A stretch of DNA of 56,204 bases from an uncultured Candidatus Actinomarina sp. Its GTDB lineage: Bacteria > Actinomycetota > Acidimicrobiia > Actinomarinales > Actinomarinaceae. The notes under the pieces were generated by a model, which searched no databases, was not told the origin of the DNA, and saw nothing but the letters and a program-made list of their open reading frames with translations. Every line of letters begins with the position of its first letter. The stretch's first letter is position 1. This document shows, in pieces, positions 9,191 through 21,307 of the stretch. The DNA lies in the NCBI GenBank assembly GCA_902634185.1, contig CACPJC010000006.1, positions 1 through 56,204 on the forward strand, read 5' to 3'. A program made the translations under genes and the position numbers.

Positions 9191-10093
9191 CTATATATCT
9201 ATTGGCTTTGATTTGTCTGTATTTTCTACTTTATCTTCTAAAAATGTAATAATTTCATCTGCAACATCAATATCTGATGCAGTTTCGATTCCTTCTAATC
9301 CGGGAGAGGAATTTACTTCAAGTACCAAAGGACCTCTGTTTGATTGAATTAGATCAACTCCTGCAACATCCAATTTAAGAATCTTTGCTGCTTTAACTGC
9401 ACTCTCTTCCTCTTCAGGAGATATATCATAATTTTCAACTCTTCCTCCTAAGTGTACATTTGATCTAAATTCTCCAGGTTTTGCAATTCTTTTCATTGAG
9501 GCAACTACTTTATCTCCCACAACGATTGCTCTTATATCTTCACCTTTAGACTCACTGATAAACTCTTGAACAAGAATGTTTGCATCAATTTTTTTCATTG
9601 TCTCAATTACACTTATTGCAGCATCCATTGTTTCAGTTAAGACTACACCTCTTCCCTGAGTTCCCTCAAGTAATTTAATAACAAATGGTGGTTCACCTAC
9701 ACTTTTTAAAACAGATTCAACGTCTCTAGAAAAATGAACATAACCGGTTATGGGCATCTCTACACCTGTATTTCCAATAAGCTGTAAAGCTCTCAATTTA
9801 TCTCTAGATCTACTAATTCCAGCTGATGAATTTGCTGAAACAGAACCCATTAATTCAAATTGTCTTACAACGGCCGCACCATAAAATGTCCATGTTGCAG
9901 CAATTCTTGGTATTACAGAATCATAATTTAATTCACGACCAGCAGAGAATATTCTTGGTTTTGCTTTTGCAATATTCATGTAACACCTTAAATAACTTAC
10001 AACCTCAGTATCATGACCTCTTTTAATTGCCGTATCGTAAAGGCGTTTTGTTGAATATAGCCTTATGTCTTGTGATAATATTCCTATCTTCAT
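9191..10093 (-). CDS. rimK: RimK alpha-L-glutamate ligase (ATP-grasp)
   Basis: [45 protein letters not shown]. Confidence 0.95.
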
Positions 10094-10536
10094 TTTTTAT
10101 TTCCCTTGGGTTTTGTCATGAAGCTAATTGAGGGATTTACAATCCATCTTCTTCCCAAAGCTTTTCGTCCAATTAACATTGTGTAATCCATGGGGCCTCT
10201 GTCTGTAAGAGTCAATTCAATATTTTTGGTAATTCCATCCATTAAGATATCAGTTTTTATATAAGGCCTTCTTTCTACATCTCCATTGGAGCTTCTTATT
10301 CTTTTAAATCCTGCAAGTGGAGCGGAAGTTTTTCTAACAGTGTTGTTTCTTTTTTTAACTGTAAATTTTATGTATTTCACATCTTTTCTTGTAACAAACT
10401 TAATATCATCAGCGTCTATAGTTGCAAGATTTGCACCTGTATCAATTTTTGCAATTACGCTTTTTATTTTTAAATCTGGGAGTGCGACCTGTTCTTTCCA
10501 GCCAACAACTTTTTTTTCTCGTTTCTTTTTGACCAT
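10090..10536 (-). CDS. RimK-associated retropepsin-like protease (RimB/PF05618-like)
   Basis: VGWKE, AKIDTGA, RSSNG...[19 protein letters not shown]; overlaps the rimK start by 4 nt. Confidence 0.9.
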
Positions 10537-10539
10537 AAT

Positions 10540-10611
10540 TTATAAAACAACGTAAAAGAGAACAATGCTAAAAGCGATTAAAAATATATGAATGTATATT
10601 GCAGGTAACAT
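10540..10611 (-). CDS. Putative 23-aa membrane micro-protein MLPAIYIHIFLIAFSIVLFYVVL
   Basis: Hand-translated ORF; almost wholly hydrophobic; -10 TATTAT 6 nt upstream; stop codon 3 nt before the next ATG. Confidence 0.55.
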   Translation of the reverse strand: MLPAIYIHIFLIAFSIVLFYVVL

Positions 10612-10664
10612 AAAAAAATAATAGTTTGAATCTTACAACAATCAACTTGATTTTTTGTGATTAT

Positions 10665-11615
10665 TTAGCCAGTTGGTTCAACTGCTTCAGTAGTGATTTC
10701 TTCATCTGTTTCTAAAAGTCCACAGTCTTCGAGTACCTCGTCAGTGTTTCCACCACCAAATACTACTCTTTCAAAAACCACAACTGCATAAATCTCATCT
10801 TCAGTAAGTTTTCCTGTAAATCCCGGCATTCCACCGATTGATACTTTATTCTCTGCTCCATACGCGGGTCCAACTTCAGCCTGCCAACCTGCAGATCCTA
10901 ATTCAATCCACAATGCATGATCACTACAAGTTGGAAAAGTAGTATAAAGTTCTCCACCAGTAAATGCAGGACCTACCCCTCCACCACCATTTACTCCATG
11001 GCAACCAGCACATGCTGCAGCACCTGAATAAACTTGTTGTCCAAGTGCAATGTAGTTTATTGAGCTTGCAGACCCAACACCTTTTCCTTCAAATGCGGAT
11101 CCATCACAGTTAACGGTTAATTGAGTTTTTCGATCAACATCTAAAATTCCATTTTCCCCACATTCTTGTGTTGATGATGTATTGACTATCCCAATAACAA
11201 TAAAGAGAGGAATAAGTACAAAACTAAAATTTAGCCATCTGGGCAAAGATGTTTCAGTATTTACCTTTATATTCAATGTTTTATTTGCAAAGGAAACTTT
11301 GTGAATAACTTTTTTAACATTTTCTTTAGAGGATATTTCAGGAACATTTTGAGTATCCTCTTTTACAATTTCTGCAGTATCTTCTTTAGGCTGCTCTAAC
11401 TCTACTTTTTCTTCTACTGGTGGGGTTGGCTCTTCTGCTGATGGTGCTTCTTCAGCAGGTTTTTCTACAGAAGCTACACTTTCTCCTCCAGCCCATGATT
11501 GTAAAACTTCATCCACAGTTCTTCCAGAAGCTTCAGCTCTAGCTTCAGCAGATCGTTGCACCAACGACTCTGGTGCATTTAATAATTCAGCAACTTTACT
11601 TAAGAGTTCACTCAT
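10665..11615 (-). CDS. Membrane-anchored monoheme cytochrome c (CcoP position) with N-terminal shared module
   Basis: CAGCH heme motif, GPAF, GMPGF distal Met, one TM helix, N-terminal repeat module. Confidence 0.88.
   Translation of the reverse strand: MSELLSKVAELLNAPESLVQRSAEARAEASGRTVDEVLQSWAGGESVASVEKPAEEAPSAEEPTPPVEEKVELEQPKEDTAEIVKEDTQNVPEISSKENVKKVIHKVSFANKTLNIKVNTETSLPRWLNFSFVLIPLFIVIGIVNTSSTQECGENGILDVDRKTQLTVNCDGSAFEGKGVGSASSINYIALGQQVYSGAAACAGCHGVNGGGGVGPAFTGGELYTTFPTCSDHALWIELGSAGWQAEVGPAYGAENKVSIGGMPGFTGKLTEDEIYAVVVFERVVFGGGNTDEVLEDCGLLETDEEITTEAVEPTG
11442..11615. repeat. 174-bp perfect direct repeat, copy 1
   Basis: Identical base by base to 12247-12420; encodes the first 58 aa. 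Confidence 0.95.
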
Positions 11616-12420
11616 TTGTACTACCTAAAGATAATAAATAAGTTATTAAATAATCTAAATCTTGATCACTTAGGAAATTTATTGATGGATGAGGTATATC
11701 CTCTTTTACAGATGATGGTTCTAATAAATAATCTTTGAGCCATTCACTATCATTTGTAGGTTCTCGTGTTCCAAGCGTTGACAAATCTGGAGCTAACCTC
11801 AATAAGCCGGTATTTTGAATTAAATTTTTATTAGCAAATTTGTTTTTAAGTATTTTTCCATTTTGCGAATCAGGTATGAGTATTCTTACATTTTGCGTAT
11901 GACATGACTGGCAATTTAATTGATTATAAATAATTGCTCCTTCTAATACTTCTTCACTCACTCGAACAGAATTATTTAAAGATTGCAGAACTATATCTTC
12001 ACTTTGTTGCCTTGGTATTGAAAAAGCAAACATGTATGTGAATACAACTACACCGATCACACCAACAATAAAACTAAGAGAACTTTCTTTCTTTAATTCA
12101 ACATTTTCTTCCTCTATTTCAAGTTGGACAATTTCCTCATCATCATTTTCCTGAACAGAGATTGCATTTTCCTCATCTTGGTCCACAACAGTAGGAGGCT
12201 CTTCAACTGGTACAGTTTCTTCTGTAGGCGGTGCTTCTTGAATAGGTGGTGCTTCTTCAGCAGGTTTTTCTACAGAAGCTACACTTTCTCCTCCAGCCCA
12301 TGATTGTAAAACTTCATCCACAGTTCTTCCAGAAGCTTCAGCTCTAGCTTCAGCAGATCGTTGCACCAACGACTCTGGTGCATTTAATAATTCAGCAACT
12401 TTACTTAAGAGTTCACTCAT
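11608..12420 (-). CDS. CcoO/FixO-like monoheme cytochrome c with N-terminal shared module
   Basis: GAIIYNQLNCQSCHTQNVR resembles CcoO GRDIYIREGCYxCHSQMIR; GLLRLAPDLSTLG resembles GSKRTGPDLARVG. Confidence 0.8.
   Translation of the reverse strand: MSELLSKVAELLNAPESLVQRSAEARAEASGRTVDEVLQSWAGGESVASVEKPAEEAPPIQEAPPTEETVPVEEPPTVVDQDEENAISVQENDDEEIVQLEIEEENVELKKESSLSFIVGVIGVVVFTYMFAFSIPRQQSEDIVLQSLNNSVRVSEEVLEGAIIYNQLNCQSCHTQNVRILIPDSQNGKILKNKFANKNLIQNTGLLRLAPDLSTLGTREPTNDSEWLKDYLLEPSSVKEDIPHPSINFLSDQDLDYLITYLLSLGSTNE
12247..12420. repeat. 174-bp perfect direct repeat, copy 2
   Basis: Identical to 11442-11615. Confidence 0.95.
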
Positions 12421-13820
12421 ACTGGAAGCTCCTCTTCAGTAAGTTCAATTGTTTCTGCTTCTGTAATTTCTCCATTTACCACTGCCTTGACGACTGAAAT
12501 GAAAAACAACAGAAATGGAAGAAGTAATGTCAAAGATAAAAACATATTTAGCGTTAAAGGAGTACTGATCAGTGACCACAATAAACCGAACCCTTCACCA
12601 TAGATTGTTGGGTTTCCTGCATTGGCACCAGCATTCCATGAGTAACCAGAAATAACTCCAATTAAAGCATTAGAAAATAATGTTAAAGACACCACAAGTT
12701 TTAATAGAAAACTAGTTAAAGACTCAAGCCTTGAAAATTTGACTTCTCTTCCAAAGATTTTAGGAATCAGATAATAAACAAACGAGATTGTAATTAATAA
12801 TGCACTGAAAACATATCCATATCTGATTGCTATAGCAAAATTTGTAAGACTCAATATAGGAATGATATTTGAGAGCGAGGACACAATTTGAAAGATATTT
12901 GTAATAACAAATATTCCAAACGAGAAACTTATAAGACTATAAATTACTTTATTTTCGTCAACTCTTGTCGAGACCGTTCTGAAGAAATTTACAGCTATAG
13001 CAAGCAATGGGAGAGACAAACTTACAGACAAGTAAAGGGATATATTTTCAATCCAATTTGGTAATACAGAACCAAAATAAAATTTAAAATTTGACCAAGG
13101 AAGGAGAAATAAGAATCCCCAAAAACCTATAGATCCCAATGTTTTACTGTACAACGTAGCATTTATACCTTTTGTAATCATGAAATGAAGTAATGATAGA
13201 AATACGAACGAATATCCGACATATATATGTGTTGAAACATACATTGAATTAATGAAAAAATTATCACTAAATACAACAAAATCAGCTCCATAAATTAGAA
13301 GTGATATCAAATAAAAAATACTTGCACCAAAAAGATACTGACTACTTACAAACAGAGAAGCTTCTTTTTTGGCCAATAAATTTAATATAATGAGTCCAAC
13401 AAATGCAAAAAATATTAAGATTTTAAAAATTAATGTATAACTAGTATTCCCAAAGAACAAAAAACTATTAGGAAATAATATTCCTAATAATAGATCGAGT
13501 GACTCCAATCCAATAACTCCCAATGAAGTTAGAAAAAAAATTGGGAATATTATTAATTTTCTTCCAAGTGTTTTTGGTAATAAGTAAACAGTCAAAAACA
13601 CAATTAAAAATGAAAGCATCAAATTGTAAGTTATATGGTTATTTAGTTTTTCTAAATATCCGCTATTGAGAAAACTATTTTGTGGGAGTATGGCTGCGAA
13701 AATGAAATAAGCTTCTTTTGTTAATGCAATAGTTCCTAAAAGAAGCAAAAAAAGTGGAGTTAAAACAATAAAAAATTTTGAAAACGCTTGTTCATTTTTT
13801 GGAAAAATTTTTATTCTCAT
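12417..13820 (-). CDS. Degenerate CcoN-like (cbb3 heme-copper oxidase subunit I) membrane protein lacking canonical His ligands
   Basis: 467 aa, about 12 TM segments; FLNSGYLEKL, LYSKTLGSIGFW, LPNWIE and YYLIPKIFGRE align by eye to CcoN; only three His in the whole protein; precedes a ccoO-like gene. Confidence 0.72.
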   Translation of the reverse strand: MRIKIFPKNEQAFSKFFIVLTPLFLLLLGTIALTKEAYFIFAAILPQNSFLNSGYLEKLNNHITYNLMLSFLIVFLTVYLLPKTLGRKLIIFPIFFLTSLGVIGLESLDLLLGILFPNSFLFFGNTSYTLIFKILIFFAFVGLIILNLLAKKEASLFVSSQYLFGASIFYLISLLIYGADFVVFSDNFFINSMYVSTHIYVGYSFVFLSLLHFMITKGINATLYSKTLGSIGFWGFLFLLPWSNFKFYFGSVLPNWIENISLYLSVSLSLPLLAIAVNFFRTVSTRVDENKVIYSLISFSFGIFVITNIFQIVSSLSNIIPILSLTNFAIAIRYGYVFSALLITISFVYYLIPKIFGREVKFSRLESLTSFLLKLVVSLTLFSNALIGVISGYSWNAGANAGNPTIYGEGFGLLWSLISTPLTLNMFLSLTLLLPFLLFFISVVKAVVNGEITEAETIELTEEELPV

Positions 13821-13989
13821 TAATTTAAAAAGTAAGTACTCAATTTGACTTTACTATTAAACCATAGAAATTACTCCAATAAAATTAGTAATTTTTTGAA
13901 AAAGTTGGGTTATAAAATTTATAATATCTAGGTAATCCTTGATAGAATAGATATTGAAGGTTTTGAGTAAATAACGTGTTGAGGGAAAC

Positions 13990-14583
13990 TTGTTAAATTT
14001 TATATTTATTAACCGATACAAAATCGGAGTTGCTTTAATTTTTGCCGGAGTAGGTGGCATAACAATTGGAGTAATTATTGCACATTTCGCCGGATTTCCT
14101 GAAGGCGAAGTGATCGATTATTTTAATTGGATGCCTAGGGGCTGGCTAATGCAAACTATCGGGCAACTCATTGCTTTTGGTGCAGGACAATTCCTATTGA
14201 TTGGAATGGCTATGCTTGCATGGCAAGATTCTGAATTAACTTGGGCTAGAGCAACATATCTGGCATTTCTCAGTTGGATACAATTTGCACTTATATTTGG
14301 TGTATTGCCTTCTGAGTGGTTAAACCTTTCTCAAGGACCTCTTGAATGGACAAACCAAAGAGAGTTTATTAACTTTCCTCCAATTTTATTTTTAGGTAAC
14401 GAAATAGGAATGAGCCTCGGAGCTCTGAAAGACATTATTCAACTTGGTATATCAGGTGGAGCATTAGTGACAGCTTTTGTAGTAGGGTATCTAATTCAAG
14501 ATATCAACGAAGCAAAAGAAAGAGGCAAAACTAGAGTTTCTGATTATGGAAAACAAGTCGTGAAGGTAGGTGCTGATGGCTAA
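13990..14583 (+). CDS. Membrane protein of unknown function, first gene of the bc-complex operon
   Basis: 197 aa, about 4 TM segments, TTG start with GAGGG RBS, overlaps the ferredoxin gene. Confidence 0.75.
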   Translation: MLNFIFINRYKIGVALIFAGVGGITIGVIIAHFAGFPEGEVIDYFNWMPRGWLMQTIGQLIAFGAGQFLLIGMAMLAWQDSELTWARATYLAFLSWIQFALIFGVLPSEWLNLSQGPLEWTNQREFINFPPILFLGNEIGMSLGALKDIIQLGISGGALVTAFVVGYLIQDINEAKERGKTRVSDYGKQVVKVGADG

Positions 14584-15025
14584 ATCAGAAGTACTTATTG
14601 AAATGCCTGAATTTGAAAAAAAATACAATTTAGCTATGGTCGAAGCCGAAAAGGTTTCATCAAGGGTTAGGCCAAAACAGTTTTTACATATTGATGAGGC
14701 AGAGTGCATTTTATGTGAAGGATGTGTAGATATCTGTCCATGGAAATGCATACATTATTTATCAACAGACGCTATAGAAGACTCTATAAACGTGGAAGCT
14801 CCTAACATGGAAGATAACGAAACGGGATTTTTTGTTGTCGATGAAGAAGCTTGTACAAGATGTGCATTATGTGTTGATAGGTGCCCAACAGGGGTTATAT
14901 CGCTCGGTAAGTTTGCTGGATCTTTAGCGGATGCAGCAATAAAGAACGGTGTTTATGAATCTCCATGGGATGAAGACTCAGGAGAGAGAAGTGACCGTCA
15001 TGGCTATATATATGGAAGACTTTAA
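14576..15025 (+). CDS. 2x[4Fe-4S] ferredoxin-like protein
   Basis: CILCEGCVDICP and CTRCALCVDRCP; ATG 14576 preferred over GTG 14570. Confidence 0.92.
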   Translation: MAKSEVLIEMPEFEKKYNLAMVEAEKVSSRVRPKQFLHIDEAECILCEGCVDICPWKCIHYLSTDAIEDSINVEAPNMEDNETGFFVVDEEACTRCALCVDRCPTGVISLGKFAGSLADAAIKNGVYESPWDEDSGERSDRHGYIYGRL

Positions 15026-15804
15026 TGAAGAACGAAAAAATTAAATTTAGAGATCGATTAAAAGATATTAGTTCGGGACTGGGAGAGTCTTTAAAAGAAA
15101 GTACGCTTTGGGGAAGTATTTTTAGACCAGGATCTCCATTTAGAAAAGGTTATTCAGATAGTCCAAGAAATAGATCATATGTTGTTATGAACAATGTTTT
15201 GTATCACCTCCATCCAGTAAAAGTAAAAAGACATGGTGTTAGGTTGTCATATACACTTTGCTTAGGAGGATTAAGCTTCTTCACATTTATTGTTTTGACC
15301 ATAACTGGTATTTGGTTGATGTTTTATTTTAGACCTACAGAAATGGCATATGTTGATATCCAATCTTTACAGACAAGTATTGCGTTTGGATCTCTAGTTA
15401 GAAATATGCACAGGTGGGCGGCTCATATAATGGTGTTAGTAGTGTTTCTTCACATGTCTCGAGTTTTTTATCATGGGGCGTACAAAGCACCTAGAGAGTT
15501 TAACTGGGTGATTGGAGTTATATTATTACTTTTAACACTTCTACTTTCATTTACTGGCTATCTACTTCCATGGGACCAGTTGGCGATTTGGGCTGTGACT
15601 GTGGGTGGAAACATGGCAGGCTATACTCCCGTTTTTGGTGCCCAAGTTAAGTTTGCATTATTTGCAGGACTAGAAGCTACTGAAGCAACACTTCTTAGAT
15701 TCTATGTTTTACATGTTCTATTTTTTCCTTTCATCATTGTAATTTTTATGGCAATTCATTTCTGGCGAGTAAGAAAGGATGGAGGAATCTCAGGTCCTCT
15801 ATAA
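15025..15804 (+). CDS. petB: Cytochrome b6-like subunit (split cytochrome b, N-terminal part) of a Rieske/cytochrome b complex
   Basis: LCLGG, RNMHRWAAH, FLHMSRV, PREFNW, FTGYLLPWDQ, RFYVLH, AIHF; 4-helix length. Confidence 0.92.
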   Translation: MKNEKIKFRDRLKDISSGLGESLKESTLWGSIFRPGSPFRKGYSDSPRNRSYVVMNNVLYHLHPVKVKRHGVRLSYTLCLGGLSFFTFIVLTITGIWLMFYFRPTEMAYVDIQSLQTSIAFGSLVRNMHRWAAHIMVLVVFLHMSRVFYHGAYKAPREFNWVIGVILLLLTLLLSFTGYLLPWDQLAIWAVTVGGNMAGYTPVFGAQVKFALFAGLEATEATLLRFYVLHVLFFPFIIVIFMAIHFWRVRKDGGISGPL

Positions 15805-15810
15805 ATATAT

Positions 15811-16665
15811 ATGGTTGATATTCCAGAACATTTATTATTAAAAACTGCTGAAGCAAGAGCTAAGGCCTTAGGTATTTCAGTTGAACAAGCATTGGCTGAA
15901 ATGAGAGGTGAAGCTGAGCCTACCAAAATTGAGAAAGAGCCAGATGTTATTGAAGTTACTCCAATTGAAGTAGAAGCCAAAGAAACACCAGCACCAGCAG
16001 CTGAAGTGAAAGAAACACCAGCACCAGCAGCTGAAGTCAAAGAAACACCAGCACCAGCAGCTGCAGTAAAAGAAGCACCGGCTCCTACACCTGAAAAATC
16101 AAACGGACAAGTACCTACTGAAGTAGATTTTGCACCTGAGACAAAAGTAACACAAAGGTTGCTTACGGTCGTCAAAGCAAAGCCAATACAAAAACCAACT
16201 TCTGAACCAGTTGATAAAGTAAACACATGGCCTCATTTAATGTTGCCAGAGTTTATTTCATTAATGGCAATGACAGCGTTTTTGATTTTTATAAGTGCAA
16301 TTTTGCAAGCTCCTTTATTAGAAGAAGCAAATCCAAACATTACACCAAACCCTGCAAAAGCACCATGGTACTTTTTAGGACTACAAGAATTACTCTCCTA
16401 TTGGGATCCACAGATCGCAGGGGTGATGATACCTCTTCTAATTGGTGTTGCAGCATTTATGGCAATTCCATATATTGATCGAAATAAAGAAAATAAGCCT
16501 TCAAAAAGAAAATATGCAATAATGTTGTGGACATTTTTTCTGGCAGGTGCTGGAACATTAAGTCTTATAGGTATTTTATTTAGAGGCCCAGGTTGGAACT
16601 GGACGTATCCATGGATTGATGGTGTATGGTTCGATGACTTACTTGACTGGGTCCATTTCGAATGA
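15811..16665 (+). CDS. petD: Subunit IV-like protein (cytochrome b C-terminal part) with N-terminal shared module and PA-rich linker
   Basis: WPHL, ANPNITPNPAKAPWYFLGLQELL, IPYIDR, 3 TM segments. Confidence 0.88.
   Translation: MVDIPEHLLLKTAEARAKALGISVEQALAEMRGEAEPTKIEKEPDVIEVTPIEVEAKETPAPAAEVKETPAPAAEVKETPAPAAAVKEAPAPTPEKSNGQVPTEVDFAPETKVTQRLLTVVKAKPIQKPTSEPVDKVNTWPHLMLPEFISLMAMTAFLIFISAILQAPLLEEANPNITPNPAKAPWYFLGLQELLSYWDPQIAGVMIPLLIGVAAFMAIPYIDRNKENKPSKRKYAIMLWTFFLAGAGTLSLIGILFRGPGWNWTYPWIDGVWFDDLLDWVHFE
15979..16079 (+). repeat. 30-bp tandem repeat, three copies plus a partial, encoding (KETPAPAAEV)n
   Basis: aaagaaacaccagcaccagcagctgaagt(g/c) units at 15979, 16009 and 16039 (third copy has one further change), degenerate at 16069. 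Confidence 0.92.
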
Positions 16666-17540
16666 CTCTTGTTGAGCTTTCATTTATTGCAATTGCATTT
16701 ATTGGAGTTTTTGGTGTAATTGGAATTGCAGCTGTAGTAACTGGAAGAACCCCAAAAGCTGTAACAAAAAGATTAAATTGGAAAAAGAATTTAGACAAAA
16801 AAGCTTTAAAAGTTGATAAATCTCAAACAAATTTTTTAGCTCCAGATGAACCAGATTTTGAAGAAGAAAACGTATCTGAAGATAGCGAACAAGAGGAAGA
16901 AGAAATTCAAACCGATGGATCCATTGCAATAAAAGAAGAAATAATTTATGAAGAAATTTCAGAAGAAGAAGCTGGAATGACTCGTAGACAATTTTTGGGT
17001 AAAGCCCTTGGAATCACGTTTGGAGCATTTGCTGGTATACAATTAATTTCTTGGCTTGGATTCTTCTATCCAAAAGTTTCTGGAGGTTTTGGATCTAAAA
17101 TAGATGCTGGTAGAGTTGATGATCTTAAAGACCAAATTTTCCAGTCAGATGGTTCAGTTATTCCTGCATTCATCCCGGAAGCAAGAGCTTATGTCTTACC
17201 ATTTGATGACAATGGCAACTCTCAGTTTTCTGATAGTGGAACTATTGCAGACGGTTTAGTTGCAGTTTATCAACGATGTGTTCATTTAGGTTGCCGTGTT
17301 CCATGGTGTAATACTTCACAAGGATTTGAATGTCCATGTCATGGTTCAAAATACAATATGGTTGGTGAGTATTACGCAGGTCCTGCTCCAAGAAACTTAG
17401 ATAGATTTATTGTAAGTGTTTCAGGAGGAAAATTAATTATTGACACAGGATCAGTCATTGAGTCACCTCGAGCTGATGGTATGTCTGTGAAATATCCACA
17501 AGGACTTTCATGTATCACAATCGCAGAGACTGAGGAATAA
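16662..17540 (+). CDS. Rieske [2Fe-2S] subunit of the bc complex
   Basis: CVHLGC and CPCHGSKY boxes, GPAPRNL, internal TRRQFL Tat motif followed by a TM helix. Confidence 0.95.
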   Translation: MTLVELSFIAIAFIGVFGVIGIAAVVTGRTPKAVTKRLNWKKNLDKKALKVDKSQTNFLAPDEPDFEEENVSEDSEQEEEEIQTDGSIAIKEEIIYEEISEEEAGMTRRQFLGKALGITFGAFAGIQLISWLGFFYPKVSGGFGSKIDAGRVDDLKDQIFQSDGSVIPAFIPEARAYVLPFDDNGNSQFSDSGTIADGLVAVYQRCVHLGCRVPWCNTSQGFECPCHGSKYNMVGEYYAGPAPRNLDRFIVSVSGGKLIIDTGSVIESPRADGMSVKYPQGLSCITIAETEE

Positions 17541-17541
17541 A

Positions 17542-18966
17542 ATGAATAGCTCGTTTTTCATAACATTAATCGCATTAGCAGTGGTTGGTGCAATAGCTTA
17601 TTTTTCTGCAGTTGGTTTTCGTGGAGCAGGAAAAATCAAAAAAGTACCAAGAAATTTACAAAAATATCTTCCGGATGATGAATTAGAGACTACTCACCTT
17701 GATAAAACATTATCAATAGCAGTTGTGCTAGCTTCTTTACTTACAATTATGATTCCACTTTATTATCTCGGTGAACCAGCGAGACAAGAAAGTTTTGTAG
17801 AGGAGTTTGACGACGTTTCAGTTGAAAGAGGGCATCATCTTTACGAAGAGTTTGGGTGTGGAAACTGCCATGGAGTAGATGGAAGTGGTGGAGCAGCTTC
17901 ATATGTTGAAAAAAGAAGTGGTGTAAGTGTTACATGGGTAGCCCCTGCAATAAACAATGTGTTTTATAGATATGATGATGAAGAAGTAAGATATTGGCTT
18001 ATATACGGTAGAGCAAACTCACCTATGCCAGCTTGGGGTCTAAAAGGCGGAGGTCCAATGAATGATGGACAGCTTGACGACTTAATAGAGTATTTGCATT
18101 ATTTTCAAATTCCACAAAGTGAAGAACTTCAACAAATTGAACAAAATATAAACTCATCTTTGCTTCGAATTGAAAATTCCGATTTACAAGTTGAAAGTGA
18201 GATTAATAAACAACATGAACTTATCGACAACATTAAGGCAGCTCCGGAAAGACTACCTGTTGCAATTGAAGCTGTTGAAATTGTCTCTGCCATCCTAGCA
18301 AGGCAGAACGGAATCGATACCGATGAAGATGGGCTTTTTGATTCGGTAGAAACAGATATATCAGTTTATAGTGAAAGTGTTGCAGATGTTTTGGGTACTA
18401 CAATTTTAAATCTAAATCCAGATGAAGAAGAATCAACACCAGGAAGAAAAGATGCATCAGTCGTTAGGGGGTACCTTTCTGATCTCGAAACGAGTGTTAT
18501 TAATCTTGGAATACTTACTGATGGTTATGACAAATTTATGGAGGAAGCAGAAAAAGGTTTAGCATTTCTTGAAAATGCCTACGAACAAAAATTATGGCTT
18601 ATTGATTTCCAAGATATTGCAGATTCAACTTTTGATGGAGATTATGACAAAGCAACAAGAGCAGTAGGAATATTTAATGCATATTGTGCGAGATGTCACA
18701 CTGCTGGTTATTCTGCAGGAGCTGCATATACAAAAACAATTGGTTCTGGAGGGTTAGGTCCTGCATTAAAAGGTGGACGAGTAAATATTCAGTTTAAAGA
18801 GAGAGATGACTTCATCGATTTTATTATCAACGGTTCCGTCAACGGCAAAGGTTATGGAGTCAATGGAGTTGGTGGTGGAAAAATGCCAGGATTTGGTGCG
18901 GTACTTCCACAGTCAGATATAGAATTGGTTATAGATTATTTGAGAGGAATGACACCTGATGCGTGA
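17542..18966 (+). CDS. Membrane-anchored diheme cytochrome c
   Basis: CGNCH with MPAW, CARCH with MPGF, two N-terminal TM segments. Confidence 0.9.
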   Translation: MNSSFFITLIALAVVGAIAYFSAVGFRGAGKIKKVPRNLQKYLPDDELETTHLDKTLSIAVVLASLLTIMIPLYYLGEPARQESFVEEFDDVSVERGHHLYEEFGCGNCHGVDGSGGAASYVEKRSGVSVTWVAPAINNVFYRYDDEEVRYWLIYGRANSPMPAWGLKGGGPMNDGQLDDLIEYLHYFQIPQSEELQQIEQNINSSLLRIENSDLQVESEINKQHELIDNIKAAPERLPVAIEAVEIVSAILARQNGIDTDEDGLFDSVETDISVYSESVADVLGTTILNLNPDEEESTPGRKDASVVRGYLSDLETSVINLGILTDGYDKFMEEAEKGLAFLENAYEQKLWLIDFQDIADSTFDGDYDKATRAVGIFNAYCARCHTAGYSAGAAYTKTIGSGGLGPALKGGRVNIQFKERDDFIDFIINGSVNGKGYGVNGVGGGKMPGFGAVLPQSDIELVIDYLRGMTPDA

Positions 18967-19327
18967 GATAATGAGAACCCTGTTGTCATCTAATTTGACA
19001 TTTACTGGAATTTTCCTTTTTGTTCTTTTTGTTCTCTCATTTTTTGGATCAACTTTTATTTTGAACGCAACAAACTTAGGTAGAAGACTTGGTTTCCTTG
19101 TTGTTGGAGCTGCAACTTTTGGATGGCTAGTTATTAATTCATTTCTGTTTATACTTTATGCTCCTAGGGGCCCAGCCCCATCATCGATAGATGGTCTAAA
19201 CGCTCTAGAAATTAGAATTATTCCAATTACTTATTTTGCTGGATCTTTAATACTTTTTATTATGTTTATGCTTGCTTTAAATAGATACGAACAAGAAGAA
19301 AAAGATACAGAAGAAACAAATAGTTAA
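18959..19327 (+). CDS. Small membrane protein, last gene of the bc operon
   Basis: 122 aa, 3 TM segments, overlaps the cytochrome c stop. Confidence 0.75.
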   Translation: MREIMRTLLSSNLTFTGIFLFVLFVLSFFGSTFILNATNLGRRLGFLVVGAATFGWLVINSFLFILYAPRGPAPSSIDGLNALEIRIIPITYFAGSLILFIMFMLALNRYEQEEKDTEETNS

Positions 19328-19368: not shown

Positions 19369-20316
19369 ATGGAATTTATAGTTTCAATTGTAAGAAGCGT
19401 CATATTATTTGGTCTTCTAATATTTATTGCGTTTAGAATATTCAGAATCTTAAGACCATTCGAAAAAGGATTGGTTGAAAGATTTGGTAAGTATAATCGT
19501 GAAGCAACCGCAGGACTAAACATTGTAATTCCGGGGATTGAAAAATTAATCATCGTAGACATGAGGGAACAAGTTATCGATGTTCCACCACAAGAAGTTA
19601 TTACAAAAGACAACGTCACAATTACTGTTGATGCAGTCATTTATTATGAACCAACTGATCCTAAAAAACTTGTATATAACGTCGGAGATTTTATCACTGC
19701 AGCAACAAAATTAGCACAAACCAACCTAAGAAACGTGGTTGGTGATCTTGAGTTAGATGCTGCTTTAACTTCAAGAGAGACTATTAATACATCTTTAAAA
19801 TTGATACTTGACGAAGCAACAGATAAATGGGGTACAAGAGTTGTACGTGTTGAAATTCAAAGAATTGATCCTCCTCAAGATGTTCAAGATGCAATGAACA
19901 AAGTTATGAAGGCTGAGAGGGATAGAAGAGCTGCTGTTACCGAAGCTGAAGGTGAAAAAAGAGCTGCAATTTTGACAGCAGAAGGTGAAAGAGAGTCACA
20001 AATTTTAAGTGCTCAAGGTGAAGCTGAAGCATTGAAACAAGTTGCCGATGCTGAAAAGTATGAAAGAGTAGTTACAGCAGAAGGTGAAGCTGAAGCTATA
20101 TTGAAAGTTTTCAATGCAATTCATGAAGGTGATCCTTCAAACGATTTGATAGCAATAAAATATCTAGAATCTCTTGAAAAAGTTGCTGATGGAAATGCTA
20201 CAAAAATATTTTTGCCAGCAGATTTATCTGCAACTTTGGGCAGTATTGGAGCAATTTCAGAATTGTTCAAGGATGAAAACAAAGATTCCACTGAATCTGA
20301 AGATAAAGAAGAGTAA
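19369..20316 (+). CDS. SPFH/band 7 (stomatin/QmcA-like) protein
   Basis: VERFGKY, PQEVITKDNV, QTNLRNVVG, KAERDRRA. Confidence 0.95.
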   Translation: MEFIVSIVRSVILFGLLIFIAFRIFRILRPFEKGLVERFGKYNREATAGLNIVIPGIEKLIIVDMREQVIDVPPQEVITKDNVTITVDAVIYYEPTDPKKLVYNVGDFITAATKLAQTNLRNVVGDLELDAALTSRETINTSLKLILDEATDKWGTRVVRVEIQRIDPPQDVQDAMNKVMKAERDRRAAVTEAEGEKRAAILTAEGERESQILSAQGEAEALKQVADAEKYERVVTAEGEAEAILKVFNAIHEGDPSNDLIAIKYLESLEKVADGNATKIFLPADLSATLGSIGAISELFKDENKDSTESEDKEE

Positions 20317-20320
20317 CAGA

Positions 20321-21307
20321 CTAGACTAAGCTGCTTTTTAATAATTCAAAAAACTTATCAGGATTACACCTTTGTACAATTCTTGTCTTATGTGTTTCAG
20401 GCTCAATGTTCATGTAGTCTATAACACATCCTCCTCTGGTCATTCCATCACGAACATCAACTCTTACATTTGCTTCTACTGACTGGCTGATTATCGTTTC
20501 ATCTAAAAATACAGACATCGCTAATGGATCAGGAAGATCATATGCATCTTGATTAAGCAATTCTTTCATCATTTCTCTTAAAACAACTTGGATATCATTT
20601 GTAAATTTAGAAAATTTTGTATTTAAAGATTCAATTTCATTTATCTTATTTATGTCAATCATTGCATCGTATAAAGAAGGATCCCAGCCAATCATTGTTG
20701 TAGGTATTCCCGCATTGAGAACTATATCTGCTGCTTCTGGATCAACCCAAAAGTTGTATTCTGCAAATTTTGTTACATTACCCAATGCATTTGAACTTCC
20801 ACCCATTATGTAAATATGTTTTATTGAATCAAGACTTTCTTTATTTTTTTCAATCATATTTGCAATATTTGTTAATGGACCTAAAGTTACTATTTCTAAA
20901 TCAGTTTCGTTTTCCAAAACCTCTTTATAAAATTCATCCGCAGTTTTGGCTTCTACTTCCTTATTTATAGGAGATAACCCAATATCACCCAGACCATCAA
21001 TACCATGCACGTGCTGAGCTGAGGTTGACTCGTTTGTATAACTTAGAGCAATGTTTGTTGCAGTCTCCGAATCAAAAACCTCTTCATATTCTCTATTTAA
21101 TGGCTTGTTTGCACCTTTATAAATAGGTATGTCGACTTCACATAATTCGTTGACATAAATGGTATTTAAAACAGCCTGATCAAGAGGGACGTTTCCTGAG
21201 ACGAGTGTAACTCCTAATATATTCTCTTTTGCTAAGTTTCTGTAAGCCATTAATAAGGCAACAGCATCATCTGATCCAGTATCAGCATCGATAATAACTT
21301 TTTTCAT
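20321..21307 (-). CDS. Nucleoside hydrolase (IU-NH family)
   Basis: DADTGSDDAVA, HGIDGLG, LGPLTN, AEYNFWVDPEAA. Confidence 0.95.
   Translation of the reverse strand: MKKVIIDADTGSDDAVALLMAYRNLAKENILGVTLVSGNVPLDQAVLNTIYVNELCEVDIPIYKGANKPLNREYEEVFDSETATNIALSYTNESTSAQHVHGIDGLGDIGLSPINKEVEAKTADEFYKEVLENETDLEIVTLGPLTNIANMIEKNKESLDSIKHIYIMGGSSNALGNVTKFAEYNFWVDPEAADIVLNAGIPTTMIGWDPSLYDAMIDINKINEIESLNTKFSKFTNDIQVVLREMMKELLNQDAYDLPDPLAMSVFLDETIISQSVEANVRVDVRDGMTRGGCVIDYMNIEPETHKTRIVQRCNPDKFFELLKSSLV

Follow-up and report, generated by a model that had tools for sequence, protein, structure and literature searches.

In an uncultured Candidatus Actinomarina sp., the genes of a degenerate cbb3-type oxidase and those of a b6-type complex III lie head-to-head on one contig (CACPJC010000006.1, positions 1 to 56,204; this whole stretch of 56,204 nucleotides is called the window). 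The subunit I homologue of the left operon, called the CcoN-like protein, shows the fold of CcoN in its predicted structure, has lost the histidines that bind haem b, haem b3 and CuB, and is maintained by purifying selection. Together with its two partner cytochromes it forms what we call the relic. With moderate confidence, we propose that the relic serves as a membrane platform without catalytic activity, on which c-type cytochromes are held in an association of complexes III and IV.

The two divergent gene sets comprise ten genes in total (window 10665–19327) and flank a spacer of 169 bp (13821–13989). Inside each set, adjacent genes overlap by 1–14 nt or are separated by a gap of 1–6 nt, and both operons are translationally coupled. 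The window has a G+C content of about 33% and belongs to contig 6 of a 974-kb genome with a completeness of 83%. Only open reading frames (ORFs) of at least 70 amino acids (aa) were listed as genes. An original prediction, which preceded this analysis, had described two divergent coupled operons around a 169-bp intergenic region, and the ORFs and Pfam matches placed all of the genes where it had put them.

Fold, ligands and selection of the CcoN-like protein

The CcoN-like protein (467 aa; 12417–13820, minus strand) was recognized by the Pfam family COX1 with 39 bits (cut-off 34.8). In the PDB, a profile of its 14-member family matched only CcoN chains (5 sequences, best E 1.6e-15). AlphaFold2 (AF2) with 14 close sequences gave a predicted local distance difference test score (pLDDT) of 45, and that model was not used. 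An alignment of 78 rows was used instead, and it gave a model with 12 helices, a pLDDT of 90.1 and a predicted template modelling (pTM) score of 0.92; this alignment included canonical CcoN rows. The top seven Foldseek matches of the model were CcoN chains, aligned at full length with a template modelling (TM) score of 0.84–0.86. NorB (TM 0.77–0.78) and subunits I of the A and B families (about 0.7–0.76) came lower. Judging from the profile matches and this model, the CcoN-like protein is a true homologue of C-family subunit I with a complete 12-helix fold.

To locate the ligands, we used the MAFFT positions at which three canonical CcoN sequences all carry His (seven columns). Their assignment relies on what we take to be the numbering of the P. 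stutzeri enzyme, in addition to the invariance in the three canonical sequences. At these seven columns, the window protein carries N, S, K, K, F, I and Y. The HMMER alignment to 3mk7_A sets H198 against the first CuB histidine, so that at most one ligand of six is kept. Thus, the number of metal-binding His is 0/6 (MAFFT) or 1/6 (HMMER), in agreement with the original prediction of a CcoN homologue that lacks its catalytic ligands. H198 is the sole invariant His in 14 Actinomarina-type sequences, and it is lost in the sister genus and in other families. Among 14 relatives from the class, 13 carry none of the six ligand His and one carries a single one. The residues that replace the ligands vary between lineages. 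When 20 diverse members of the family were compared, the near-invariant columns held P, R, G, L, F, W and T, and no candidate replacement ligand (Met, Lys, Tyr, Cys, Glu or Asp) was conserved in the helices. The alignment to 3mk7_A also shows that the Tyr directly before the conserved helix-7 Trp, which we take to be the cross-linked active-site tyrosine of cbb3, corresponds to Leu in the window protein, which lacks this tyrosine. The His set of NorB, which is accompanied by glutamates for FeB, is missing as well, the same His columns being empty. The CcoN-like protein is predicted to bind no haem b, haem b3 or CuB and would therefore reduce neither O2 nor NO.

The best-conserved stretches in the 14-sequence alignment are residues 253–259 and 391–411, which sit in the loops between helices 7 and 8 and between helices 11 and 12 of the AF2 model. 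Given the usual topology, these loops would lie on the outer side of the membrane, where CcoO docks. Compared with close relatives, the CcoN-like gene has a ratio of nonsynonymous to synonymous divergence (dN/dS) of 0.09–0.10 at a dS of 0.14–0.19. The ratio is 0.00–0.02 for the cytochrome b6 gene and 0.02–0.05 for the neighbouring RimK and Band 7 genes. These values indicate that selection on the CcoN-like gene is relaxed when compared to its neighbours, yet clearly purifying. The length of the protein remains steady at 459–467 aa as identity drops from 97% to 52%, and neither stops nor frameshifts were found in the gene in 47 public-genome loci or in 121 genomes of the class. Identity among the loci is 44–98% for the CcoN-like protein versus 87–100% for b6.

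The first partner, the CcoO-like monohaem cytochrome c (270 aa; 11608–12420, minus strand), consists of an N-terminal module, an acidic linker, one membrane helix and a CxxCH domain. It reaches the Pfam family FixO with 29.6 bits, which is exactly the cut-off value, and five of its six PDB matches are CcoO, each of them weak (E 0.005–0.09). The CxxCH, GPDL and C-terminal CcoO motifs are present in 15 of 15 class sequences. The axial-Met position of the haem is occupied by Met in eight of these sequences and by His in seven, including that of the window. The CcoN-like and CcoO-like proteins are fused into a single polypeptide of 631–693 aa in 6 of 14 loci from the class. The third gene of the left operon (10665–11615, minus strand) stands in the ccoP position and encodes a membrane-anchored monohaem cytochrome c of 316 aa, with the N-terminal module, one membrane helix, one CxxCH motif and matches to Pfam Cytochrom_C and Cytochrome_CBB3. 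Its best PDB matches are generic c-type cytochromes (E 7e-4) and not the dihaem CcoP, so it appears to be CcoP-like by position only. An orthologue of this cytochrome with a short N-terminal motif is also present in families without the relic.

The b6-type complex and the shared N-terminal module

The right operon lies on the plus strand, and its core is a split cytochrome b6 (259 aa; 15025–15804; Pfam Cytochrome_B, 145.6 bits) with a separate subunit IV (15811–16665; Pfam Cytochrom_B_C), where an unsplit QcrB would have about 540 aa. In the PDB, b6 of cyanobacteria and chloroplasts matched with an E of 7.9e-45 across the whole core up to the C-terminal residues, and mycobacterial and corynebacterial QcrB (535–573 aa) matched with about 2e-24. 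The complex thus differs from the unsplit QcrB type, as had been expected. The alignment shows all four haem His, and a Cys aligns with the Cys of the 'YCLGG' stretch in 1vf5_A, the carrier of haem cn in b6f; covalent attachment of haem cn is predicted from this. The best PDB match of subunit IV is PetD, subunit IV of b6f (E 2.8e-5, residues 138–242). It is preceded by an N-terminal extension of 135 aa, and a repeat scan found in the linker of this extension four tandem units of 30 nt (15943–16092, plus strand), which code for a decapeptide repeat rich in Lys, Glu, Pro and Ala. The Rieske iron-sulfur protein (16662–17540; Pfam Rieske) carries the CxH...CxxH cluster motifs in its translation.

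Four more genes complete the operon. The ferredoxin subunit (14570–15025; Pfam Fer4 families) is of the 2x[4Fe-4S] type without a membrane helix, and both of its CxxCxxCxxxCP motifs are invariant in 14 sequences. A complex prediction of this subunit with the module gave a score of 0.00, which counts neither way. In the position of cytochrome f there is a membrane-anchored class I dihaem cytochrome c (17542–18966), in which two CxxCH domains about 185 residues apart were recognized by Pfam in two stretches; it had no PDB match at E<=0.01. The operon begins with TM197, a polytopic membrane protein of 197 aa (13990–14583), and its final gene encodes a membrane protein of 122 aa that is conserved across the class (18959–19327); no Pfam family was found for either. 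The term 'b6f-like' appears justified for the b6, subunit IV and Rieske core, with cytochrome f replaced and ferredoxin added.

The search for a terminal oxidase elsewhere in the genome, suggested along with the original prediction, found a short contig that carries COX2 and a canonical COX1 (521 bits). Cytochrome bd was not detected in this genome, which is 83% complete. Judging from these matches, an intact A-type (caa3) oxidase is the sole terminal oxidase found.

Three proteins of the two operons carry the same N-terminal module, as had been noticed before. The first 174 nt (58 aa) of the cytochrome c gene (11442–11615, minus strand) and of the CcoO-like gene (12247–12420, minus strand) are identical at 174 of 174 positions, after which only 31 of 66 positions agree. 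The N-terminus of subunit IV (15811–15939, plus strand) is a diverged third copy with 37% identity (E 0.0019 with a single 58-aa query). We compared the two cytochrome copies within each of the 26 relatives that have both genes: they were identical in 10 genomes and agreed at 166 or more of 174 positions in 19. Copies from more distant genomes are identical to those of the window at 111–145 of 174 positions. Because paralogues within a genome are closer than orthologues between genomes in most of the 26 relatives, the two copies appear to be under concerted evolution, with a gene-conversion tract that has a sharp edge. Six assemblies, in addition to four discussed below, have a locus that stops within the module repeat, two of them at the contig end.

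The core of the module is about 35 residues long and is followed by linkers rich in Pro, Glu and Ala. The module comes before the one membrane helix of the haem proteins that carry it, and as their haem domain must be extracellular, we infer that the module is cytoplasmic. It matched no Pfam family at E<=10, and its profile found no credible relative in the PDB (best E 0.02). Across the class, the module is carried by subunit IV (1–3 copies), the unfused CcoO-like protein and the cytochrome c (1–4 copies). The full module occurs in the families with the relic, and families without it show a short motif only. In six loci from the latter families (L119–L124), subunit IV and a divergent cytochrome c start with a motif of about 10 residues similar to 'EIPEHLLKRS', which in subunit IV is repeated once more beyond a Gly/Ala-rich stretch. 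This motif looks like a minimal form of the module.

The module reaches beyond the two operons in which the original prediction had noticed it. Whole-genome searches of five genomes found one copy per genome outside the cluster of relic and bc genes and all the rest within it. The outside copy belongs to a polytopic protein that falls into no family and that is encoded, in Actinomarina, by the final gene of the caa3 oxidase operon. This operon starts with the gene of subunit II, to which a cytochrome c is fused, and continues with those of subunits I, III and IV, CtaG and the module membrane protein. Atlas look-ups of this protein and of TM197 returned only hypothetical or unnamed actinobacterial (Actinomycetota) clusters. 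The module is also found on a 2-oxoacid:ferredoxin oxidoreductase of the window genome: its alpha subunit (POR, POR_N; G000:C3:36644-39337, plus strand) carries the subunit IV-type module at both the N- and the C-terminus, on acidic linkers of Pro, Glu and Val. Module-bearing frames of 665–920 aa are present in 9 of 38 genomes of the genus, and Pfam identity was checked for the frame of the window genome alone.

Linkage, distribution and origin

We examined whether the two operons stay together in relatives. Among the 47 loci of Actinomarinales, 46 have the membrane protein, ferredoxin and b6 genes divergently adjoining the CcoN-like gene, and in the remaining one the contig starts inside the CcoN-like gene. 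In a sample of 298 Acidimicrobiia genomes, which includes the unpublished G251, the CcoN-like family was found in 121 at E<=1e-10. By family, it is present in 53/61 genomes of f1, 34/35 of f2, 13/16 of f12, 7/7 of f15 and 6/9 of f10, and at the same threshold there is no match in f3, f5, f7, f8, f11 and f16, among others. All of the 14 loci taken from about 10 positive families of the class have both gene sets, which are immediately divergent in 12 and separated by 3.6–4.4 kb in two. The operons are thus linked in relatives, as the original prediction expected. The arrangement is old: the genes of the relic and of the b6c complex already stood head-to-head when the families of Acidimicrobiia separated, and the loss of the ligands is ancient as well. 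The CcoN-like gene is present in streamlined genomes of 1 Mb, and relatives of 2–4 Mb share the loss of ligands.

It turned out that the b6-type complex is far more widespread than the relic. Against what the original prediction might suggest, the split b6-type complex with ferredoxin is no peculiarity of this locus: split b6 is present in 286 of the 298 class genomes (this count also covers the unpublished G209), including families without the relic, and a few families have distant matches only. Six loci of families without the relic contain the genes of ferredoxin, b6, subunit IV, Rieske protein, dihaem cytochrome c and membrane protein, and four of them also have a divergent cytochrome c. 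On this distribution, b6c with its ferredoxin forms the common core of the class, to which the relic is added as an accessory in a large subset.

Two features of the right operon change with the relic. In a profile search of the class, with a sample that includes the unpublished G209, G251 and G271, TM197 occurred in a long form of at least 195 bits in families with the relic and in a short form of at most 84 bits elsewhere. The idea that TM197 is exclusive to families with the relic was rejected: a short, weak form adjoins the bc operon in other families, and only the long form tracks the relic. The ferredoxin has a C-terminal insertion of 14 aa in the seven aligned sequences whose families combine the relic with the long TM197. 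The insertion is absent from L091 and L092, which have the relic and no homologue of the 197-aa protein, and from five aligned sequences of families without the relic.

We also traced the ligand-less form beyond the class. In a sample of 251 genomes across the phylum, which includes the unpublished G374, 30 match the profile at E<=1e-25, 23 of them outside the class, and seven loci outside the class were examined. Three of these loci have all six His and a partner with 2–5 CxxCH motifs, and none of the three has bc genes within about 9 kb. Another three are ligand-less (at most one ligand kept); ferredoxin and b6 genes lie 5–7 kb away in each, accompanied by subunit IV in two, and the third ends at the contig end. 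The seventh locus, L132 (G300:C5), comes from another class of the phylum and keeps only the two low-spin haem positions. It may be an intermediate, 'haem b only' form; it sits on a long branch of uncertain placement. We built an unrooted maximum-likelihood tree from 26 sequences, in which the six-His rows form one clade with support of 94/93. The backbone of the ligand-less groups has no resolution, and Actinomarina is placed on a long branch with a deviant composition. The tree is compatible with a single ancient loss of the ligands, and it does not separate one loss from several. Economy of haem, described for streamlined or haem-auxotrophic cells in the accessible part of 10.1101/2021.01.11.426183, was considered as the cause of the ligand loss and rejected, because the relatives of 2–4 Mb share the loss.

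The spacer between the operons has conserved blocks among Actinomarina in the columns of an 11-sequence alignment. A promoter-like site (13896–13925, plus strand) matches the hexamers at 11 of 12 positions; the promoter scan of the spacer gave two sites versus 1.6 expected from shuffles, a weak result with no enrichment. The locus is flanked by genes at 9191–10536 (minus strand) and 19369–21307 that encode a RimK-type ATP-grasp ligase with a zinc-protease partner, a Band 7/SPFH protein and a nucleoside hydrolase, and these flanks are syntenic across most Actinomarina loci. When L011 was compared with window positions 10665–15025, the left operon was nearly identical, with a dS of 0.03–0.14, and the membrane protein and ferredoxin genes had a dS of 1.0–2.3. 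This mosaic divergence points to a breakpoint of recombination at the spacer or close to it. Contigs from all of four marine RNA libraries (four studies) cover parts of both operons, with depth in 27, 30, 29 and 22 of 30 bins; X7 leaves 8 of 30 uncovered. This evidence consists of contigs, in which depth cannot rank genes and DNA carry-over is possible.

Possible role of the relic

We propose the following model. The right operon would encode the menaquinol:cytochrome c oxidoreductase of the cell, a split Rieske/cytochrome b complex of the b6 type with the haem-cn cysteine, in which a dihaem cytochrome c stands for cytochrome f and to which the 2x[4Fe-4S] ferredoxin is bound together with two small membrane subunits. 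The left operon would be a degenerate ccoNO(P)-like operon whose subunit I has kept its fold and holds no metals. Its partners, haem c proteins with one-helix anchors, would be held beside the b6c complex by the relic, and their haems would pass electrons to the caa3 oxidase or stabilize the contact with it. The cytoplasmic module on its flexible linkers would probably dock subunit IV, the relic cytochromes and the caa3-operon protein to a common partner or to each other. We find this platform reading the most economical because the subunit I homologue appears metal-free, haem c subunits are kept, the gene is selected and stands head-to-head with b6c, and the products share a cytoplasmic tag. 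The original prediction had a former cbb3 oxidase turned into a scaffold and cytochrome c relay tethered to the bc complex. The homology and the ligand loss held up, and the gene is kept under selection; the tether and the relay are putative parts of the model.

Several observations weigh against a platform of this kind. The complex is putative, and divergent genes may share regulation without any contact between their products. Contigs from RNA libraries can hold DNA, and one of them spans the divergent spacer. The same b6c complex operates in families that lack the relic, which is thus unneeded for the core function. By general cytochrome chemistry, His in the axial-Met position should lower the potential of the CcoO-like haem, which fits poorly with a relay from a high-potential dihaem cytochrome c to caa3. 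In four assemblies (L016, L019, L032 and L038), the body of the CcoO-like protein is absent, and the cytochrome c gene directly follows the CcoN-like gene. The two repeat copies may have been collapsed in assembly, or the sequence between them may have been deleted; if the four deletions are real, the CcoO-like subunit is dispensable. Finally, the genomes are related, and the co-variation of TM197, ferredoxin and module may be one event in one clade.

Some of these points would suit an independent non-respiratory unit, such as a transporter or channel, a system for periplasmic redox chemistry or for handling haem or metals, or a sensor that uses the CcoO haem, whose adjacency to the bc genes comes from co-regulation. 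The linkage loosens to 5–7 kb outside Acidimicrobiia, the His/His-type haem of this lineage is better suited to sensing or low-potential chemistry than to a relay, contact with the bc complex is putative, and that complex is the same where the relic is missing. However, the genes are immediately and divergently adjacent in 46/47 and 12/14 loci, the module of the relic cytochromes recurs on subunit IV and on the caa3-operon protein, TM197 and ferredoxin change form where the relic occurs, and no polar or charged residue is conserved within the helices family-wide to suggest a channel. We consider such a unit rather unlikely. It is less likely still that the relic is an assembly or stabilizing factor, a chaperone-like scaffold for b6c, caa3 or their c-type cytochromes that is not a stoichiometric part of them. 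A cofactor-less, membrane-embedded protein encoded beside its presumed clients would fit this role, as would the lower depth of RNA contigs in the left operon in three of four runs, if contig depth could rank genes, which it cannot. Against an assembly factor stand the two haem c subunits that the protein has kept, with conserved motifs; its fusion to one of them in 6 of 14 loci favours a holo-complex with redox activity.

The full-length fold, the strong conservation of the loops placed on the outer face and the retention of an electron-input subunit could also point to an active reductase of O2, NO or another substrate, which holds its cofactors through residues other than His. There are precedents in the accessible part of 10.1101/2021.10.15.464467: the low-spin haem is ligated by His/Met in nNOR and by His/Lys in some eNORs, and one active-site His is replaced in gNOR. 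In the CcoN-like family, all six positions are lost, their replacements are lineage-specific, and the helices hold no conserved Met, Lys, Tyr, Cys, Glu or Asp, so we regard an active enzyme as very improbable. A decaying remnant without function has hardly any probability in our view. The relic does evolve faster than its neighbours (44–98% versus 87–100% identity for b6, dN/dS 0.1 versus 0–0.02), and the CcoO-like body is missing from four assemblies; but a dN/dS of about 0.1, the intact reading frames in 47 loci and 121 genomes, and the persistence in 1-Mb streamlined genomes and over class-level divergence all stand against decay.

The platform reading has parallels in known systems. The cbb3 oxidase CcoN-CcoO-CcoP (PDB 3mk7) has the same gene order, the same subunit I fold (TM 0.86) and a CcoO-type haem c subunit. 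The relic differs from it in the missing ligands for haem b, haem b3 and CuB, in a monohaem third gene product unlike CcoP and in the added cytoplasmic modules, and it would be no oxidase. In the bc1-cbb3 supercomplexes 6xkw and 8smr, cbb3 rests on complex III, as the arrangement of the genes suggests here. Cytochrome b6f (PetB/PetD/PetC) and the b6c complex of Firmicutes likewise have a split cytochrome b, the haem-cn Cys, a PetD-like subunit IV and a Rieske protein; our locus differs from them in the dihaem cytochrome c in place of cytochrome f, the 2x[4Fe-4S] ferredoxin in the operon, the two membrane proteins of no known family and the module on subunit IV. The actinobacterial bcc-aa3 system (QcrABC with CtaCDEF; PDB 6hwh and 7q21) comes from the same phylum and has a dihaem c subunit and an A-type oxidase. 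By analogy, the idea of an obligate association of complexes III and IV without soluble cytochrome c may carry over. Its QcrB is unsplit (535–573 aa, match of about 2e-24), whereas here b6 is split, the dihaem cytochrome c has no PDB match and subunit II has a fused cytochrome c. We know of no relic, ferredoxin or module in actinobacterial bcc-aa3.

It is conceivable, though improbable, that b6c, the cbb3 relic, caa3 and, in a subclade, the 2-oxoacid:ferredoxin oxidoreductase form one module-tethered respirasome with the relic as its hub, in which the operon ferredoxin feeds low-potential electrons to the haem-cn or quinone-reduction side of b6. If true, bacteria would possess, in hard-wired form, a counterpart of the cyclic route via ferredoxin that is debated for chloroplast b6f.

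The original prediction had held that the arrangement was undescribed, and in the full-text literature, subscription journals and supplements aside, we found no paper that describes the ligand-less CcoN family, its linkage to the b6 complex or the module. New in this work are the distribution in the class and the phylum, the fused forms, the switch from Met to His, the long TM197 and the ferredoxin insertion, the six-His relatives without bc linkage, and the module carriers in the caa3 operon and on the 2-oxoacid oxidoreductase.

Few bacterial groups of the surface ocean are as abundant as Actinomarina. Source databases name the CcoN-like proteins 'cbb3-type cytochrome c oxidase subunit I', and a metabolic reconstruction that credits Actinomarina or other Acidimicrobiia with a high-affinity oxidase on the strength of this gene is probably wrong. 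The accessible part of 10.1101/2021.10.15.464467 describes the active-site His as completely conserved in all families but one. The relic offers a clear example of a catalytic core of the haem-copper superfamily that was long kept after the loss of every cofactor ligand, with six-His relatives in the same phylum for comparison. It brings two uncharacterized elements into view, a ferredoxin that would be bound to a b6-type complex and a repeated cytoplasmic module that may serve for docking. Thus, the locus offers a testable model of an association between complexes III and IV that may have outlived the activity of one partner.

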